This document shows positions 2,156-20,879 of a stretch of DNA of 21,344 nucleotides, piece by piece; positions within the stretch are counted from its first letter, which is position 1; each line of letters opens with the position of its first letter. The translations under genes and the position numbers were made by a program. Location of the stretch: assembly GCA_014630515.1 (NCBI GenBank), contig GCA_014630515.1_4091.1, one strand, 5' to 3'. The notes under the pieces are model-generated. The model was not told the origin of the DNA. It saw only the letters and a list, made by a program, of their open reading frames with translations, and made no database searches. Origin of the DNA: a phage.

Positions 2156-2243
2156 ATAGATACTTCTCTGCACCCTGTGGGCTAGTTTTTGTCTATGCGT
2201 ATATAATAGCAAAGGGACTGACCGGAGTCAATCCCTTTTTTTT
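2156..2243 (-). repeat. repeat element A: conserved leader motif, embedded promoter, GC hairpin with T-run
   Basis: core GCACCCTGTGGGCT; TATATAATAGCAAAGGGACTGACCGGAGTCAATCCC hairpin followed by T8 on plus strand; minus-strand TTGACT, 17 bp, TATTAT overlaps the hairpin; near-identical copies at ~4075, ~7076, ~11806. Confidence 0.6.
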
Positions 2244-4074: not shown

Positions 4075-4166
4075 GATACACTTCCGCACCCTATGGGTCA
4101 GTGAGTTATCTCTCAATGGATATATAATAGCAAAGGGACTGACCGGAGTCAATCCCTTTTTTAATC
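4075..4166 (-). repeat. repeat element B: conserved leader motif, embedded promoter, GC hairpin with T-run
   Basis: core GCACCCTATGGGTCAGTGAG; hairpin AAAGGGACTGACCGGAGTCAATCCC plus T6; minus-strand TTGACT, 17 bp, TATTAT (4124-4152). Confidence 0.6.
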
Positions 4167-4170
4167 TTTT

Positions 4171-4755
4171 TTATCGTGTTACCTTACTTGCTGCCACATC
4201 ACGCTTTTTATAGTACTGATTCCAGATATTGCTGGTTAAACCGTAATCAAGTACTTTAATAAGTCCATTACGATCCTGGCCGATATTCTGTTTTCTGATA
4301 TCTCTTATCGTTAGTGTTGATAATGTATCATCGACGTGTTGTAGTGCATCAGCAAAGCGGTGCTGGCGTTCAATGGCATTACGTTTAATATTGTACTTTA
4401 ATTCGTTGCACGCGTTAACGTGCTTCACACTGCCTTTGCTTGCAGTACTCAACCGATCCATAACGATAAACATATTATCAGGATCGCATAAATGCATATG
4501 CACCTTTGCAAAGTACTGTTTCAACTGAGGGCGGTCATAGTCTAAAAAATTCCATACCTTACATTCAGTTTCATTTTGTTCTACACCCGCATCACAATTC
4601 GCGACCTTAATCACTAACCGATCATTTAAAGCGAATACTATACGGGAAGAACCAGCACCGATGATCTCCAGGCCAGCTAACCGACAAGCTGAAAGGATCT
4701 CTTTGTTGGTTTCCATTTCTGACAGTGTACGGATGAATTTAGTATAATTACGCAT
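4171..4755 (-). CDS. protein-kinase-like protein (194 aa)
   Basis: ATG 4753-4755; AAGGAG SD 8 nt upstream; translation has glycine-rich IGAGSSR, lysine in VIKV, catalytic-loop-like IRDIRKQN and DFG-like VLDYG in the expected order. Confidence 0.6.
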   Translation of the reverse strand: MRNYTKFIRTLSEMETNKEILSACRLAGLEIIGAGSSRIVFALNDRLVIKVANCDAGVEQNETECKVWNFLDYDRPQLKQYFAKVHMHLCDPDNMFIVMDRLSTASKGSVKHVNACNELKYNIKRNAIERQHRFADALQHVDDTLSTLTIRDIRKQNIGQDRNGLIKVLDYGLTSNIWNQYYKKRDVAASKVTR

Positions 4756-4786
4756 TGCATGTTCTCCTTGAGTTAATGAAACTATA

Positions 4787-5029
4787 TTACAGTACTTTAC
4801 TATCAATGGCAACTACTTTTTTAACATTAACGGCGTGGATCACTTCCTTAGTGTTTTTAGTACTGAATACTTTCGCCGCTCCTTGTTCGACCGTGATGCG
4901 ATAGCGACCATTAACATCAACCATATTAATAAAGTCCGGCGTGCTGAATGGTGTTGTTTTACATTTCAGTACTGTTAACAGTTCCACCAGCGATGTAGTT
5001 TCTTTGATACGTTTTTCTAAAGTAATCAT
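4787..5029 (-). CDS. hypothetical protein (80 aa)
   Basis: ATG 5027-5029; GGGGGA SD; 31-nt gap to 4171..4755 without promoter, so co-transcribed; track start lies in leader. Confidence 0.65.
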   Translation of the reverse strand: MITLEKRIKETTSLVELLTVLKCKTTPFSTPDFINMVDVNGRYRITVEQGAAKVFSTKNTKEVIHAVNVKKVVAIDSKVL

Positions 5030-6576: not shown

Positions 6577-6852
6577 TTAAGTATTGTAAATGTCGTGAAT
6601 AGTGATAAAGTTTTTACGACCGTAAACCTGCAAATCTGTATCAATAAAGTGCTTATCTAGTACATCCTCGACGCTTAACGCGGTGTCGTGGATATCTTCG
6701 TAGAATTGAGGATCTACAATCTTGCTTAAGTCATCCGGCGTTAACTTATCGTTAAGCCATTGTACCGCCTGGATATCTGCATCACGTTTCCATTGTTCCA
6801 GGTTAGTAGTCAGTACTTGTTCGATTTCGTTAGCTGTCAGTAGAATCCGCAT
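6577..6852 (-). CDS. hypothetical protein (91 aa)
   Basis: ATG 6850-6852; AAGGA SD. Confidence 0.7.
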   Translation of the reverse strand: MRILLTANEIEQVLTTNLEQWKRDADIQAVQWLNDKLTPDDLSKIVDPQFYEDIHDTALSVEDVLDKHFIDTDLQVYGRKNFITIHDIYNT

Positions 6853-7075: not shown

Positions 7076-7160
7076 TAGATACATTTATGCACCCGGTGGG
7101 CTGATTTGTTTCTATGCGTATATAATAGCAAAGGGACTGACCGGAGTCAATCCCTTTTTC
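7076..7160 (-). repeat. repeat element C: conserved leader motif, embedded promoter, GC hairpin with T-run
   Basis: core GCACCCGGTGGGCT; hairpin AAAGGGACTGACCGGAGTCAATCCC plus T5; minus-strand TTGACT, 17 bp, TATTAT (7122-7150). Confidence 0.6.
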
Positions 7161-9166: not shown

Positions 9167-9464
9167 TATTTTAACCTCATTATAAAAATACTATAGTACT
9201 GTAACGCGACAAGTATATTACTTGTTCTTACTTTTTCCAATCCATACGACACGACATATTCATCCCCATATGTGCGGATCACCACACCATGAAAATTTTT
9301 ATACACTTCCACTACTAATCATAACCTTTCGTCTAACCAACTGCATAGAATTATACTACTTTACGCAAATTGATCAAGTATTGATCAGATCATTTTTTGA
9401 TCAATATTAGACAGCTACATTTGTGCACCCTATGGGTTAGTGACGTTCTCGTCTTGATGTAAGT

Positions 9465-10527: not shown

Positions 10528-10577
10528 TTTGTTTTTCCTCTTAGTGGGGAGAATCATCTCTCCCCTTGATGTAAACT

Positions 10578-10605
10578 ATTATACAGTACTATAATCTATT
10601 GTCAA
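10578..10605 (-). promoter_or_regulatory. early sigma70-type promoter with 5' stem-loop
   Basis: minus strand TTGACA, 16 bp, TATAAT; leader hairpin GGGGAGAG-atgatt-CTCCCC. Confidence 0.6.
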
Positions 10606-10618
10606 ACTATTTTTTATA

Positions 10619-11589: not shown

Positions 11590-11772
11590 TTAATCTCTTT
11601 GATACTCACATAACGCCATATCATACGCAATTGACGCTGATTTGAAATCATCGTGACGCTCAATCTCTTTCATGTCTACATAGATGATCCATAGGTTTAC
11701 GTCTTCCTGGCGTATGATAACGGCAGGTTTACCGATGATATGTGATGCCGCTAGTTCGATTGGTTTAAACAT
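11590..11772 (-). CDS. hypothetical protein (60 aa)
   Basis: ATG 11770-11772; AAGGAG SD 8 nt upstream; transcribed from the promoter inside repeat element D. Confidence 0.65.
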   Translation of the reverse strand: MFKPIELAASHIIGKPAVIIRQEDVNLWIIYVDMKEIERHDDFKSASIAYDMALCEYQRD

Positions 11773-11805
11773 TGTAGTACTCCTTATTAGATTGATATAT
11801 TTTAT

Positions 11806-11892
11806 TTACACTTCCGCACCCGGTGGGCTAGTGAGCTATCTCTCAATGAATATATAATAGCAAAATGGCTGACCGAAGTCAACCACTTTTTT
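11806..11892 (-). repeat. repeat element D: conserved leader motif, embedded promoter, variant hairpin
   Basis: core GCACCCGGTGGGCTAGTGAG; hairpin TGGCTGACCGAAGTCAACCA with compensatory changes relative to A-C; T6 on plus strand; minus-strand TTGACT, 17 bp, TATTAT (11854-11882). Confidence 0.6.
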
Positions 11893-12029
11893 CATTTATT
11901 TTTAGCTTTCAGAATCGCCGCCTTTCGCGTCATGCCTTGCTTGATGTACTCCTTTACTTTCGCTTTACGTGCTTTCGCTTTATCTGCTTTCGTTTTAGGA
12001 GTACTGTAAATTAAACCGTTAGGATTCAT
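11892..12029 (-). CDS. lysine-rich small protein (45 aa), not in ORF track
   Basis: ATG 12027-12029 directly follows TAA of 12030..12119 (TAAATG); about one third Lys/Arg; stop TGA 11892-11894. Confidence 0.45.
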   Translation of the reverse strand: MNPNGLIYSTPKTKADKAKARKAKVKEYIKQGMTRKAAILKAKNK

Positions 12030-12268: not shown

Positions 12269-12318
12269 TTTGATTCTCCTAGTATCGGGGAGAATCATTC
12301 CCCCCCTCTATGTAAACA

Positions 12319-12346
12319 ATTATACAGTACTGAAAACTAATTGCAA
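12319..12346 (-). promoter_or_regulatory. early sigma70-type promoter with 5' stem-loop
   Basis: minus strand TTGCAA, 16 bp, TATAAT. Confidence 0.6.
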
Positions 12347-12349
12347 GTA

Positions 12350-12496
12350 CTATTTTTTAGATTTACGCAAACTTTCTACCATCTCAGGAGTAAGGTCCGG
12401 CGGGTAGGAAACCACTTCATCAACGAAACGTAAAGGGAATACCCCAGCGAAAGGTGAACATGCTTTCTTAGTATTACTCTTTTTTGATGCTTTCAT
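12350..12496 (-). CDS. hypothetical small protein (48 aa), not in ORF track
   Basis: ATG 12494-12496; AAGGA SD 7 nt upstream; stop TAG 12350-12352. Confidence 0.55.
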   Translation of the reverse strand: MKASKKSNTKKACSPFAGVFPLRFVDEVVSYPPDLTPEMVESLRKSKK

Positions 12497-13104: not shown

Positions 13105-13275
13105 TTACGCCGCCTTATCAGTACTGGCAACCGGACGGATACGGGCCATCGCCTGGGCTTGTTCTACGCTGTATTGTTCGTATAGTCTGCATTCTTCCGG
13201 TGTAGGAATAGCATCAATACGTTTCATTGGTTTAATGATGCTTTCAACTTCATTCAGTACTTGATTAACGTTCAT
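13105..13275 (-). CDS. hypothetical small protein (56 aa), not in ORF track
   Basis: ATG 13273-13275; GAGGA SD 7 nt upstream; stop TAA 13105-13107; the overlapping track ORF 13272..13502 is in another frame. Confidence 0.55.
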   Translation of the reverse strand: MNVNQVLNEVESIIKPMKRIDAIPTPEECRLYEQYSVEQAQAMARIRPVASTDKAA

Positions 13276-13326
13276 GGTATAATCCTCAATATAAGCGGCC
13301 TAAATCGACCGCTAACGATGTTTTGA

Positions 13327-13596
13327 TTAATAGGTGTATGGTTGACGCTCAAACAATGATTGCACGTTGTACGCCCCGCTAATGGGCTTTGCTGGTAAAT
13401 CAATTTTATATTGTTCACGCTTAAAAATAATAAAACGGCAATTGTTTTTAACATCAAAATTGATTGAACGTTCCAATAGCTTTCCTTCGTGTACAAATAC
13501 AAGATAACCGCTTGCTACTTGTTTTGTAGTACTGGTTGCAACCATAGACCGACGAACATGAGTACCTGCATCGATTAAAGTACTGATATTTTTCAT
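13327..13596 (-). CDS. hypothetical protein (89 aa)
   Basis: ATG 13594-13596; AGAGGA SD 7 nt upstream. Confidence 0.7.
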   Translation of the reverse strand: MKNISTLIDAGTHVRRSMVATSTTKQVASGYLVFVHEGKLLERSINFDVKNNCRFIIFKREQYKIDLPAKPISGAYNVQSLFERQPYTY

Positions 13597-16328: not shown

Positions 16329-16425
16329 ATAAAGACGAGATAGTCACTAACCCACAGGGTGCATAGATCCGTCTATTAAATGATTCAGTACTGCAAAATA
16401 AAGGGGATCGTTTGATCCCCTCTGT
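16329..16425 (+). ncRNA. candidate small RNA (plus strand) carrying the conserved leader motif
   Basis: starts ~7 nt after the 16294-16322 promoter, contains GAGATAGTCACTAACCCACAGGGTGC, ends at hairpin 16402-16421; no SD-preceded ORF. Confidence 0.3.
16393..16421 (-). terminator. rho-independent terminator (minus strand)
   Basis: minus strand AGGGGATC-aaac-GATCCCCT followed by TTTATTTTG; 5 nt after stop of 16427..16648. Confidence 0.65.
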
Positions 16426-16648: not shown

Positions 16649-16699
16649 TGTAAAACTCCTTATTAGTGGGGAGAACCATTTCTCCCCTTGATGTAAACT

Positions 16700-16727
16700 A
16701 TTATACAGTACTGGAAACTAATTGCAA
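16700..16727 (-). promoter_or_regulatory. early sigma70-type promoter with 5' stem-loop
   Basis: minus strand TTGCAA, 16 bp, TATAAT. Confidence 0.6.
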
Positions 16728-16735
16728 GTACTTTT

Positions 16736-16939
16736 TTAATTTAATTGCTTTAAAACATAATCAAAGACACCACGCACATCATTGATCATCGCCTGGCGGT
16801 TAGCAGGTAACGCATCAGGATCGCCACTATCCCAGGCATTAATGAAGCCACCTAAATCATGGAATACTTTATTCCGTAACCCGATCAACTGCAATTCTTT
16901 TTCTTCAAGCTCTTTGATACGTTTAATTAAATCACTCAT
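16736..16939 (-). CDS. hypothetical protein (67 aa)
   Basis: ATG 16937-16939; GAGGA SD overlaps stop of 16957..17241; start region GAGGATTATCTAATGAGT is duplicated at 17241. Confidence 0.6.
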   Translation of the reverse strand: MSDLIKRIKELEEKELQLIGLRNKVFHDLGGFINAWDSGDPDALPANRQAMINDVRGVFDYVLKQLN

Positions 16940-18444: not shown

Positions 18445-18526
18445 ATAGATACATTCCCGCACCCTATGGGCTATCGCCTTGTGTCCGGCTTGTAAGTATT
18501 ATCTCACTAAGCCGGATAACGGTCAA
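18445..18526 (-). repeat. repeat element G: promoter with conserved leader motif and flanking inverted repeat
   Basis: minus strand TTGACC, 17 bp, GATAAT (18498-18526); inverted repeat CCGGCTT/AAGCCGG brackets the -10; leader has CCCATAGGGTGCGGGAATG. Confidence 0.5.
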
Positions 18527-19926: not shown

Positions 19927-20113
19927 TACTACATAGACGCGAGAAAGCGGATACCCCAGGGGGTGGGAAGATCCGTCCAAAATTCAAGATATAAAAAAAG
20001 GATAGACTCCCGCACCCTAGCAGGTTAACGCACTTTCTCAGTACTGAATTATAGTACCATAGTCCGGCCCAGGATGGCAAGCAAATTAATTAAAACTTTT
20101 TTCATCCAGGGTA

Positions 20114-20141: not shown

Positions 20142-20239
20142 AGTTCCATCAAGTCGAGAAAGACTCAAGCCCACCGGGTGCATAGTTACGCCCAAAATTC
20201 AGTACTGAAAAAAATTTTTAAAAATATCCGTCCAGGCCG

Positions 20240-20359: not shown

Positions 20360-20480
20360 TTGATTTAGCCGTCTATACTTCCAGACGTGTAACCATCTAG
20401 CCGTTTAGCCGTCCAAACGTCTAGCCATCCAGCCATCCAGAAATCTAGACGTTTAGCCGTCTAGATGGATAGCCATCTTT
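20360..20480. repeat. iteron-like direct-repeat array
   Basis: 7 copies of YAGCCRTY within ~115 bp (TTTAGCCGTC at 20364, 20404, 20452); also CTAGACGT/CTAGATGG and ACTTCCAGAC repeats; preceded by A-rich tract 20341-20360. Confidence 0.5.
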
Positions 20481-20879
20481 ACTTCCAGACTTCTGGAGGG
20501 CTAGACATATCTACGTCCAAAATCCATCCAGGGTAACTACGCCCAAAATCCGTCAGTACTATACCATAGATCTATCTTTTGAAAGGGAGTATTCAGTACT
20601 GCCATCATAGCCCTCACTATGTTACCCTAGGAGGATGAAGACTATCATGTAGTACTGAATACTGTTAGAGGGAATCCACCAGCACAAGCTGGTGGCATAA
20701 TGCTTTAGATTAAAATCAGTACTGACACCATTCTGTTAATATCAGTACTGTTATTACGATTTTCATATGAGGTTCAAAAAGATGTACCACCACAGGAGGA
20801 ACTATCTTTTCTGTACTGTCTCACGACAGGAGGTAGAGTAAATGAATTGTTCGCAGCAACTCATCTCTCTATGTAGAAC

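Follow-up and report, generated by a model that had tools for sequence, protein, structure and literature searches.

The 21,344-nucleotide stretch of phage DNA analyzed here (NCBI GenBank assembly GCA_014630515.1, contig GCA_014630515.1_4091.1), hereafter called the window, contains four copies (A to D) of an inverted repeat, and the hairpin of element D differs from that of the three others on both arms. This raises the question of whether the structure itself is under selection and, if so, on which strand it acts. The original prediction held that the paired changes argue for such selection, and that the hairpin could terminate plus-strand (antisense) transcription while carrying the -35 box of a minus-strand promoter.

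Element D and its genomic setting

Using Megablast, the window matched 86 phage records, mostly Escherichia Asteriusvirus, with 88-96% identity in mosaic pieces. The matching phages include 121Q, PBECO4, G17, and TH47, which are Asteriusvirus-type jumbo coliphages (Rak2-like). The open reading frames of the window are nearly all small and on the minus strand, each with a near-consensus sigma-70-type promoter upstream. In Pectobacterium phage CBB, the region homologous to the window lies inside a 22.4-kb terminal direct repeat. Terminal repeats of about 21 kb have been reported for Asteriusvirus phages, and in fEgEco12 and CBB the region is located within terminal repeats of 21-22 kb (PMC13070987). 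The authors of the CBB study considered RpoD-like promoter regions with short hypothetical genes to represent early, host-takeover genes (PMC5259590). The window corresponds to the early-gene region of an Asteriusvirus-type jumbo coliphage, and this region is probably the long terminal repeat of the phage. No tRNA or tmRNA was predicted in the window, and no Rfam family matched it at the gathering score.

On the plus strand, positions 11861-11890 read aaaaTGGcTGAC-CGAA-GTCAaCCActttttt, within which the hairpin of element D is aTGGcTGAC-CGAA-GTCAaCCAc. The other three elements share the sequence GGGAcTGAC-CGGA-GTCAaTCCC. The actual loop has 4 nt; a search in which a 6-nt loop was first assumed returned nothing. 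Compared with A, B, and C, two pairs of D are altered on both arms (G-C to T-A and A-T to G-C) and one pair is the same, while the outermost pair is an A.C on the plus strand, where it is lost, and a G.U on the minus strand. Hence, the compensatory changes reported for D are real, with two doubly changed pairs. The loop of D is also altered, from CGGA to CGAA on the plus strand. All four elements are part of a repeat of 85-130 nt, in which the identity is 91% between A and C and 77%, over 128 nt, between B and D. Their coordinates and those of the neighboring features are listed in Table 1. The 45-aa ORF upstream of D also harbors a 15-nt tandem repeat of 2.7 copies (11957-11997, CTTTCGCTTTACCTG on the plus strand), which encodes a lysine/alanine-rich stretch, KADKAKARKAKVK.

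Table 1. Coordinates of the four elements and of associated features in the window.
Feature	Position	Strand	Description
Element D hairpin	11862-11889	-	RNA AAAGUGGUUGAC-UUCG-GUCAGCCAUUUU; 12 pairs including 2 G.U; C(UUCG)G tetraloop
Element D promoter, sigma-70-type	11854-11882	-	-35 TTGACT 11882-11877; 17-nt spacer ending in TGC; -10 TATTAT 11859-11854
45-aa ORF upstream of D	11892-12029	-	TGA stop 9 nt before TTGAC; G17 orthologue is an annotated CDS with an annotated terminator directly after it
Small variable hairpin UGAGAGAUAGCUCA	11832-11845	-	Precedes the D leader motif
D leader motif CCCACCGGGTGC	11816-11827	-	Invariant; about 20 nt past the predicted start
60-aa ORF downstream of D	11590-11772	-	AAGGAG ribosome-binding site; predicted to be served by the D promoter
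Element A hairpin AAAGGGAUUGAC-UCCG-GUCAGUCCCUUU	2211-2238	-	Promoter 2203-2231; leader motif 2170-2181; ORF 2255-2455 ends 23 nt before TTGAC
Element B hairpin	4132-4159	-	Same sequence as A; promoter 4124-4152; leader motif 4086-4097; ORF 4171-4812 ends 18 nt before TTGAC
Element C hairpin	7130-7157	-	Same sequence as A; promoter 7122-7150; leader motif 7089-7100; 31-codon ORF ends 8 nt before TTGAC
Leader 12-mer copies	2170-2181, 4086-4097, 7089-7100, 9425-9436, 11816-11827, 18459-18470	-	
Leader 12-mer copies	16351-16362, 19955-19966, 20170-20181	+	

Conservation of pairing and the acting strand

When element D was used as a blastn query, 98 phage records proved to contain the element, at several places per record, including Klebsiella phages RaK2 and K64-1, Cronobacter phage GAP32, Pectobacterium phage CBB, and jumbo phages of Erwinia and Salmonella. 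Copies were drawn from stretches of 10-40 kb of nine related Rak2-like phages and from one IMG/VR metagenomic contig. Sites were selected blind to pairing, using TTGAC and a TG-extended -10 box, which yielded 119 promoter sites. The hairpin class was then defined by the end of the spacer and the -10 box (TTTG[CT]TAT and similar) rather than by the stem, and comprised 57 sites, 48 of them unique. In 46 of these 48 sequences, the coding strand forms a stem over the -35 box that is 9 bp or longer. With a fixed register and no fitting, positions 1-9 of the 48 copies contained 318 Watson-Crick, 81 G.U, 9 A.C, and 24 other cells.

Covariation was analyzed in an alignment of 35 distinct copies with a 4-nt loop, counted on a 12-pair structure. 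The 13 copies left out were near-duplicates (7), copies with loops of 5-6 nt that still form the stem (4), and copies without hairpin (2). In this alignment 94.8% of the pair cells were paired, compared with 27-62% in controls with a slid partner arm, and four pairs (columns 9-12 with 27-30) were changed on both sides. The number of double-change cells was 24 versus 2.8 +/- 3.6 after shuffling (0 of 500 shuffles reached 24), and the covariation score was 0.275 versus 0.180 (0 of 500), although these shuffle counts do not amount to probabilities as the copies are related by descent. The outer stems included GGGA/UCCC, GUGG/CCAU, GGGG/CCCC, GUAC/GUAC, GGAG/CUCC, and AAGG/CCUU, in addition to GAC/GUC and GGC/GCC in copies with a shifted register. 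The inner 5' arm, TTGAC, is invariant and its partner arm was only GUCAG, GUUAG, GUCGG, or GUUGG, that is, C or U opposite G and A or G opposite U. Loops were UUCG in 15, UCCG in 8, and UACG in 1 of the 48 unique copies (UNCG in 24 of 48) and GNRA in 2, and were otherwise variable. UNCG loops closed by C-G form a class of extra-stable RNA tetraloops, and both UNCG and GNRA loops are RNA stability motifs.

Two A-type hairpins of TH47 (positions 24276 and 28104 of its stretch) have GTAAG in place of GTCAG, giving a G.A mismatch in the inner stem. They are the only clear breaks of inner pairs, and because the TH47 record is marked UNVERIFIED, a sequencing error is possible for these copies.

These data confirm that the hairpin stem is under selection for pairing. 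The window alone, with a single diverged copy, is too small for statistics, and it is across the 35 related copies that the proposed selection on structure was borne out, with covariation far above both the shuffled and the slid controls. The stems stay paired and the loops vary freely, the opposite of stem positions changing without pairing as often as those of the loop.

As for the acting strand, the minus-strand RNA folds into an unbroken 12-bp stem in A-C as well as in D. The fold energy on this strand was -19.5 kcal/mol for A (z -6.2) and -15.9 kcal/mol for D (z -4.8), whereas on the plus strand it was -13.2 kcal/mol for A (z -3.2) and only -6.4 kcal/mol for D (z -1.2; 29 of 200 shuffles were as good). 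The plus strand is weaker because its C.A mismatch, as well as the A.C end in D, is a G.U wobble on the minus strand. The same asymmetry is found in the aligned copies. Within the inner nine pairs, the coding strand has 62 G.U versus 2 A.C cells; a perfect 9-bp stem is present in 29 of 35 copies on the coding strand and in none of 35 on the opposite strand, where only 80% of the same cells are paired. Moreover, the coding strand folds better in all 48 unique copies (mean of -14.7 versus -9.1 kcal/mol). This settles that the conserved feature is an RNA-type structure on the coding (minus) strand. A structure acting on the plus strand, as proposed originally, is not supported by the 3'-arm changes, which are almost exclusively ones keeping the minus-strand G.U, nor by the plus strand of D, which folds about as well as shuffled sequences. 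Such a comparison of G.U with A.C cells provides a clean and reusable way of assigning the acting strand of a hairpin.

A terminator-like hairpin fused to the next promoter

A consensus scan identified TTGACT-17 nt-TATTAT with a TG extension on the minus strand in all four elements, and the layout is the same in all relatives (nine related phages and one metagenomic contig). The 5' arm of the hairpin holds the -35 TTGAC, as had been correctly predicted for the minus-strand promoter, and an A5-8 tract lies upstream of the -35 box in the hairpin promoters. Past the G+C stem, the RNA reads UUU(U)G, C/U, and UAU(U/A)AU, such that the U-tract runs into the TG-extended -10 box. From this layout, transcription from D would start at the A of a conserved CAT, at about 11847, some 7 nt past the -10 box; an upstream RNA terminated at the hairpin would thus share no sequence with the new RNA. 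TTGAC lies a median of 13 nt past the stop codon of an ORF on the same strand, and no more than 30 nt past it in 54 of 57 copies. In D, the position of the TGA makes the hairpin the 3' flank of the 45-aa ORF.

The hairpin is already annotated as a terminator or stem-loop in related GenBank records; it is an ordinary feature, of a known kind in a new host group. In the G17 record, the orthologue of D is described as "putative transcriptional terminator, -14.70, ARNold", six bases past the upstream CDS and on the same strand, and the orthologues of A-C are annotated as terminators at -13.00. A copy in the GAP32 record is annotated as "stem_loop, ARNold". The terminator pattern of our scan matched all four elements on the minus strand only. 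We also calculated a d'Aubenton-Carafa score, which is approximate, uses modern energies, and is indicative only. On the coding strand it was positive in 32 of 56 distinct copies, the four window copies having borderline values of +1.8 to +4.0. The U-tract of the window copies is short (3-4 U, then G, then C/U-UAUUAU; T-score of 3.0-3.6), while a U-rich 3' flank is found in essentially every copy and reaches U6 in copies of GAP32, CBB, and Klebsiella phages. Searching Rfam at E values up to 10 returned only sub-threshold matches, on the minus strand, to the 3' terminator ends of sRNA models, which are no evidence of membership. The window copies thus look like putative terminators or attenuators of moderate strength on the coding strand; with borderline scores and a short U-tract, they may be partial attenuators or merely stabilizers of 3' ends.

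Taken together, elements A-D probably represent a terminator/attenuator hairpin of the PeSL (promoter-early stem-loop) type, fused to the next early promoter and acting in the coding-strand RNA, with termination and promoter activity both predicted from sequence. According to this model, the polymerase coming from the upstream gene would transcribe AAA-GGGR-UUGAC-UNCG-GUCAG-YCCC-UUU(U)G right past the stop codon, and the nascent RNA would form a hairpin of 9-12 bp, capped by a stable tetraloop and with a U-rich stretch behind it. The hairpin would stop or attenuate transcription, or at least leave a protected 3' end. The same DNA would serve as the -35 hexamer (TTGAC, the inner 5' arm), with the U-tract merging into the TG-extended -10 box, and the next promoter would begin a new transcript about 10 nt further on, insulated by the terminator from upstream read-through. 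Because TTGAC would be fixed by promoter function, the 3' arm could change only as long as RNA pairing is kept (C or U opposite G, A or G opposite U), and the outer stem would be free to covary. The covariation is genuine, and it marks a terminator-like hairpin of the coding strand, joined to an early promoter, rather than an antisense terminator.

Four other readings were considered. The first is that the minus-strand hairpin protects or processes 3' ends, blocking exonucleases after endonucleolytic cutting of a polycistronic early RNA, without any termination. Strand-specific conservation and UNCG loops would fit this reading equally well, as would the short U-tract and the borderline scores, and the authors who described PeSLs themselves wrote "terminator/attenuator" (PMC2839356). 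However, a U-rich flank in essentially every copy would be needless for a mere stabilizer, and strong termination has been observed in a reporter for a comparable PeSL stem-loop (PMC2839356). We consider this reading doubtful.

Next comes the reading in which the hairpin is, on the plus strand, an intrinsic terminator of antisense transcription, alone or bidirectionally, and the DNA is the -35 box of the minus-strand promoter. The T6-8 noted after the plus-strand stem is roughly right, since A is followed by T8, B by T6, C by T5, and D, after one C, by T6, and the symmetry of A-tract and U-tract is typical of bidirectional terminators. The approximate score on this strand was +30 for A and +10 for B, positive values that are due to their T8 and T6 runs, but -2 for C and -36 for D, and it was positive in only 9 of 56 distinct copies. 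This reading also has against it the constant C.A mismatch with further A.C cells in the family, the absence of perfect stems on that strand, its lower stability in every unique copy, and the shuffle-like fold of D. The ORF-sized genes are all on the minus strand, and the promoter scan gave no more than isolated consensus hits on the plus strand. The T run itself is explained by the A-tract upstream of the -35 box, which is also found in the hairpin-less promoters of the window. The plus-strand terminator is therefore unlikely as the conserved function: it is not supported for D, and antisense termination could at best be a side role of A and B.

Far less probable is that the inverted repeat acts as DNA, either as a palindromic operator of a dimeric regulator over the -35 box or as a cruciform or N4-type hairpin promoter. 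The repeat does overlap the -35 box, where a repressor would act, and its TGAC/GTCA arms are palindromic. Yet the half-sites are asymmetric (TTGAC opposite GTTAG, GTCGG, or GTTGG), the outer arms swap identity while staying complementary, which a sequence-reading protein would not tolerate, and G.T-type cells outnumber A.C-type cells by 62:2, as is characteristic of one-strand RNA pairing and not of a two-fold DNA site. On account of this one-strand wobble asymmetry, the operator, the cruciform, and the N4-type hairpin promoter were rejected. Finally, chance or hitch-hiking within a repeated element, without selection on structure, would suit the one diverged copy of the window (n = 1) but is scarcely credible given the family-wide counts and controls, the loops that vary while stems stay paired, and the at least six distinct outer stems, all complementary, in several phage genera.

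Leader motif and comparison with known systems

An invariant 12-mer, CCCAYNGGGTGC (CCCAYNGGGUGC in RNA), is located about 20-25 nt past the predicted start of a subset of the sigma-70-type promoters. It is found downstream of 40 of 57 hairpin promoters and of several hairpin-less promoters, on both strands, with 9 copies in the window versus 0.38 expected. In the sources first examined, 74 sites were found, and the motif is conserved in several Rak2-like genera. A small hairpin precedes it, which by eye differs in sequence among copies while keeping its complementarity, and GTATCTAT or CCGTCTAT words follow. In A-C, the 12-mer precedes a second promoter and not a gene. RNAalifold on 48 leaders predicted only a 4-bp hairpin within CCCAYNGGGTGC, with 0 compensatory changes. 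In an exact-pattern scan of IMG/VR, the 12-mer was confined to Rak2-like genomes (about 345-378 kb) and a few metagenome fragments, while a scan with the -10/leader pattern GCTATTATATANNCATNGA returned mostly chance matches, plus 121Q and one 366-kb contig. The motif corresponds to no Rfam family, and a literature search for the 12-mers returned only papers that, from the portions available, appear unrelated to phage transcription. A pairing of the leader start or loop with the downstream GTATCTAT, suggested by eye, was inconsistent between copies and was discarded, as was a tRNA-like or ribozyme nature of the leader, for which neither ARAGORN nor Rfam gave a match.

Candidate roles of the leader motif are factor loading, operator function, and RNA processing. 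One speculative and rather improbable possibility is a three-part cassette restricted to Rak2-like phages, in which the terminator hairpin and the sigma-70 promoter are joined by the leader motif as a cis-acting loading site like nut, put, and ops. This reading is compatible with the conservation of the motif as primary sequence, with its constant spacing from the promoter across several genera, and with its position upstream of the second promoter in A-C. If true, the motif would make polymerases from these promoters resistant to downstream terminator hairpins, so that short immediate-early transcripts would give way, in a timed switch, to long ones that read through. Of all parts of the cassette, only the leader motif might lead to something new.

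Other repeats were observed near these promoters. Motif-bearing promoters face each other at 60-70 nt in GAP32 (6618-6686 of its stretch), in G17 (13273-13341 of its stretch), and in the window (19955-20019), so that the two leaders are reverse complements (CCCAYNGGGTGC-GGAGATCTATCTA ... TAGATAGATCTCC-GCAYCCNRTGGG); this arrangement creates a long inverted repeat, from which short transcripts would converge and overlap. A non-coding array of about 18 units at 20366-20521, with an 8-bp periodicity (NRTCYAGM, e.g., CGTCTAGC CATCCAGC CATCCAGA), adjoins the plus- and minus-strand promoters at 19.9-20.25 kb and may consist of protein-binding iterons. Its CGTCTA and ATCTA words recur after the leader motif elsewhere. 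The main promoter family of the window has at least 23 copies (e.g., 10565-10616, 12306-12357, and 16687-16738 on the minus strand) with TTGACA or TTGCAA, a spacing of 16-17 nt, TATAAT, an A-tract, and AGTACT words. Its transcripts begin with ACAUCAAG. Next, immediately upstream of the Shine-Dalgarno (SD) sequence, comes a G/C-rich 5' hairpin (GGGGAGAAAUGGUUCUCCCC, arms variable), probably a 5' stabilizer or an attenuator. This family appears to form a second PeSL-like subclass, one whose stem-loop lies downstream of the -10 box.

Among known systems, the hairpin resembles Rho-independent terminators in its G+C-rich stem of 9-12 bp, stable tetraloop, U-rich 3' flank, and position right past a stop codon on the coding strand, and in the ARNold predictions for its orthologues. 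It differs from them by a short U-tract broken by the G of the TG-extended -10 box and by a stem that doubles as promoter DNA. In bidirectional intrinsic terminators, an A-tract precedes and a U-tract follows a single hairpin. The window family shares this layout (A5-8, hairpin, U3-6), but A.C mismatches systematically weaken one orientation, for which there is no convergent gene. C(UUCG)G hairpins were reportedly described in T4 intergenic regions by Tuerk et al. in 1988. The present hairpins likewise combine a C-G-closed UNCG tetraloop with a location in phage intergenic RNA, although C(UUCG)G is a general RNA stability motif and no functional class per se.

The closest likeness is to the PeSLs of T4-type phages (Arbiol et al., 2010, PMC2839356; Comeau et al., 2014, PMC4122927). 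A PeSL is a composite cassette that starts at the upstream stop codon in an AT-rich stretch, combines a strong sigma-70-like promoter with a stem-loop that includes G-T pairs, and extends as far as the SD and ATG of a small gene; the stem-loop may be located between the boxes, over the -35 or -10 box, or up- or downstream of them (PMC2839356). With one such stem-loop, lacZ expression fell about as far as with rrnB T1, and PeSLs were described as recombination points for modular gene shuffling, with termination, promoter activity, and mini-circles demonstrated only for RB49/phi1 (PMC2839356). In the nt-1/KVP40 group, the stem-loop is A3-4 G3-loop-C3 T3-4 and the promoter is TTGYVH-N17-TAWWAT (PMC4122927), a consensus that fits the copies of the window family. 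The window elements share with PeSLs the strong sigma-70-like promoter, the AT-rich stretch (A5-8) upstream of the -35 box, and the 9-12 bp stem over that box, with GGGR...YCCC arms and G.U in 66 of 420 cells. They also share the order of stop codon, AT-rich stretch, promoter/stem-loop, and SD with the ATG of a small gene, element D running into AAGGAG-ATG. In contrast, A-C are followed by a leader and a second promoter and not directly by a gene, and 40 of 57 copies have the extra invariant leader motif.

Like PeSLs, the cassette occurs in many copies where small orphan genes cluster, and it is found at the boundaries of insertions, deletions, or replacements between close relatives. Internal ends of homology blocks fell in promoter cassettes (+/-15 nt) in 17 of 28 cases with G17 and 16 of 28 with TH47 versus 15.6% expected (P of about 1e-7), although repeats attract alignment ends. 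A 215-nt block (11592-11806), with the 60-aa ORF downstream of D, is missing at this place in TH47 and sits between the D leader and the next promoter. Both observations are consistent with gene shuffling mediated by the cassettes.

The papers on CBB and fEgEco12 report RpoD-like promoters, ARNold terminators, and terminal repeats; PeSLs and the leader motif are not mentioned in them. In the available literature naming these phages, PeSLs are not described for them, the sole co-mention being one in a jumbo-phage review. The host genome is a Rak2-like jumbo phage (Asteriusvirus) and not a T4-type phage (Straboviridae), and the region is apparently a long terminal repeat. The blastn search with D also matched T4-type phages, namely Vibrio phage VH7D and Aeromonas phage 65, in which AAAGGGTTGACTTCGGTCAGCCCTTTTG lies between a stop codon and the next gene. 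In VH7D, AAAAAAGGGTTGACTTCGGTCAGCCCTTTTGTGTATTAT follows the rIIB stop codon and is followed by an SD and ATG, and the sequence in phage 65 is AAAGGGTTGACTTCGGTCAGCCCTTTTTGCTACTAT. Both are practically identical to the copies in the Klebsiella jumbo phage. Given the jumbo-phage host and the same design in these two T4-type phages, we classified the cassette as PeSL-like in a new host group. Hence, the PeSL type of cassette would extend from T4-type to Rak2-like jumbo phages, where it would punctuate the terminal-repeat early region and match the breakpoints of gene modules, helping to explain the mosaic small-gene content. For annotators, a practical rule would be that these cassettes mark the boundaries of transcription units.
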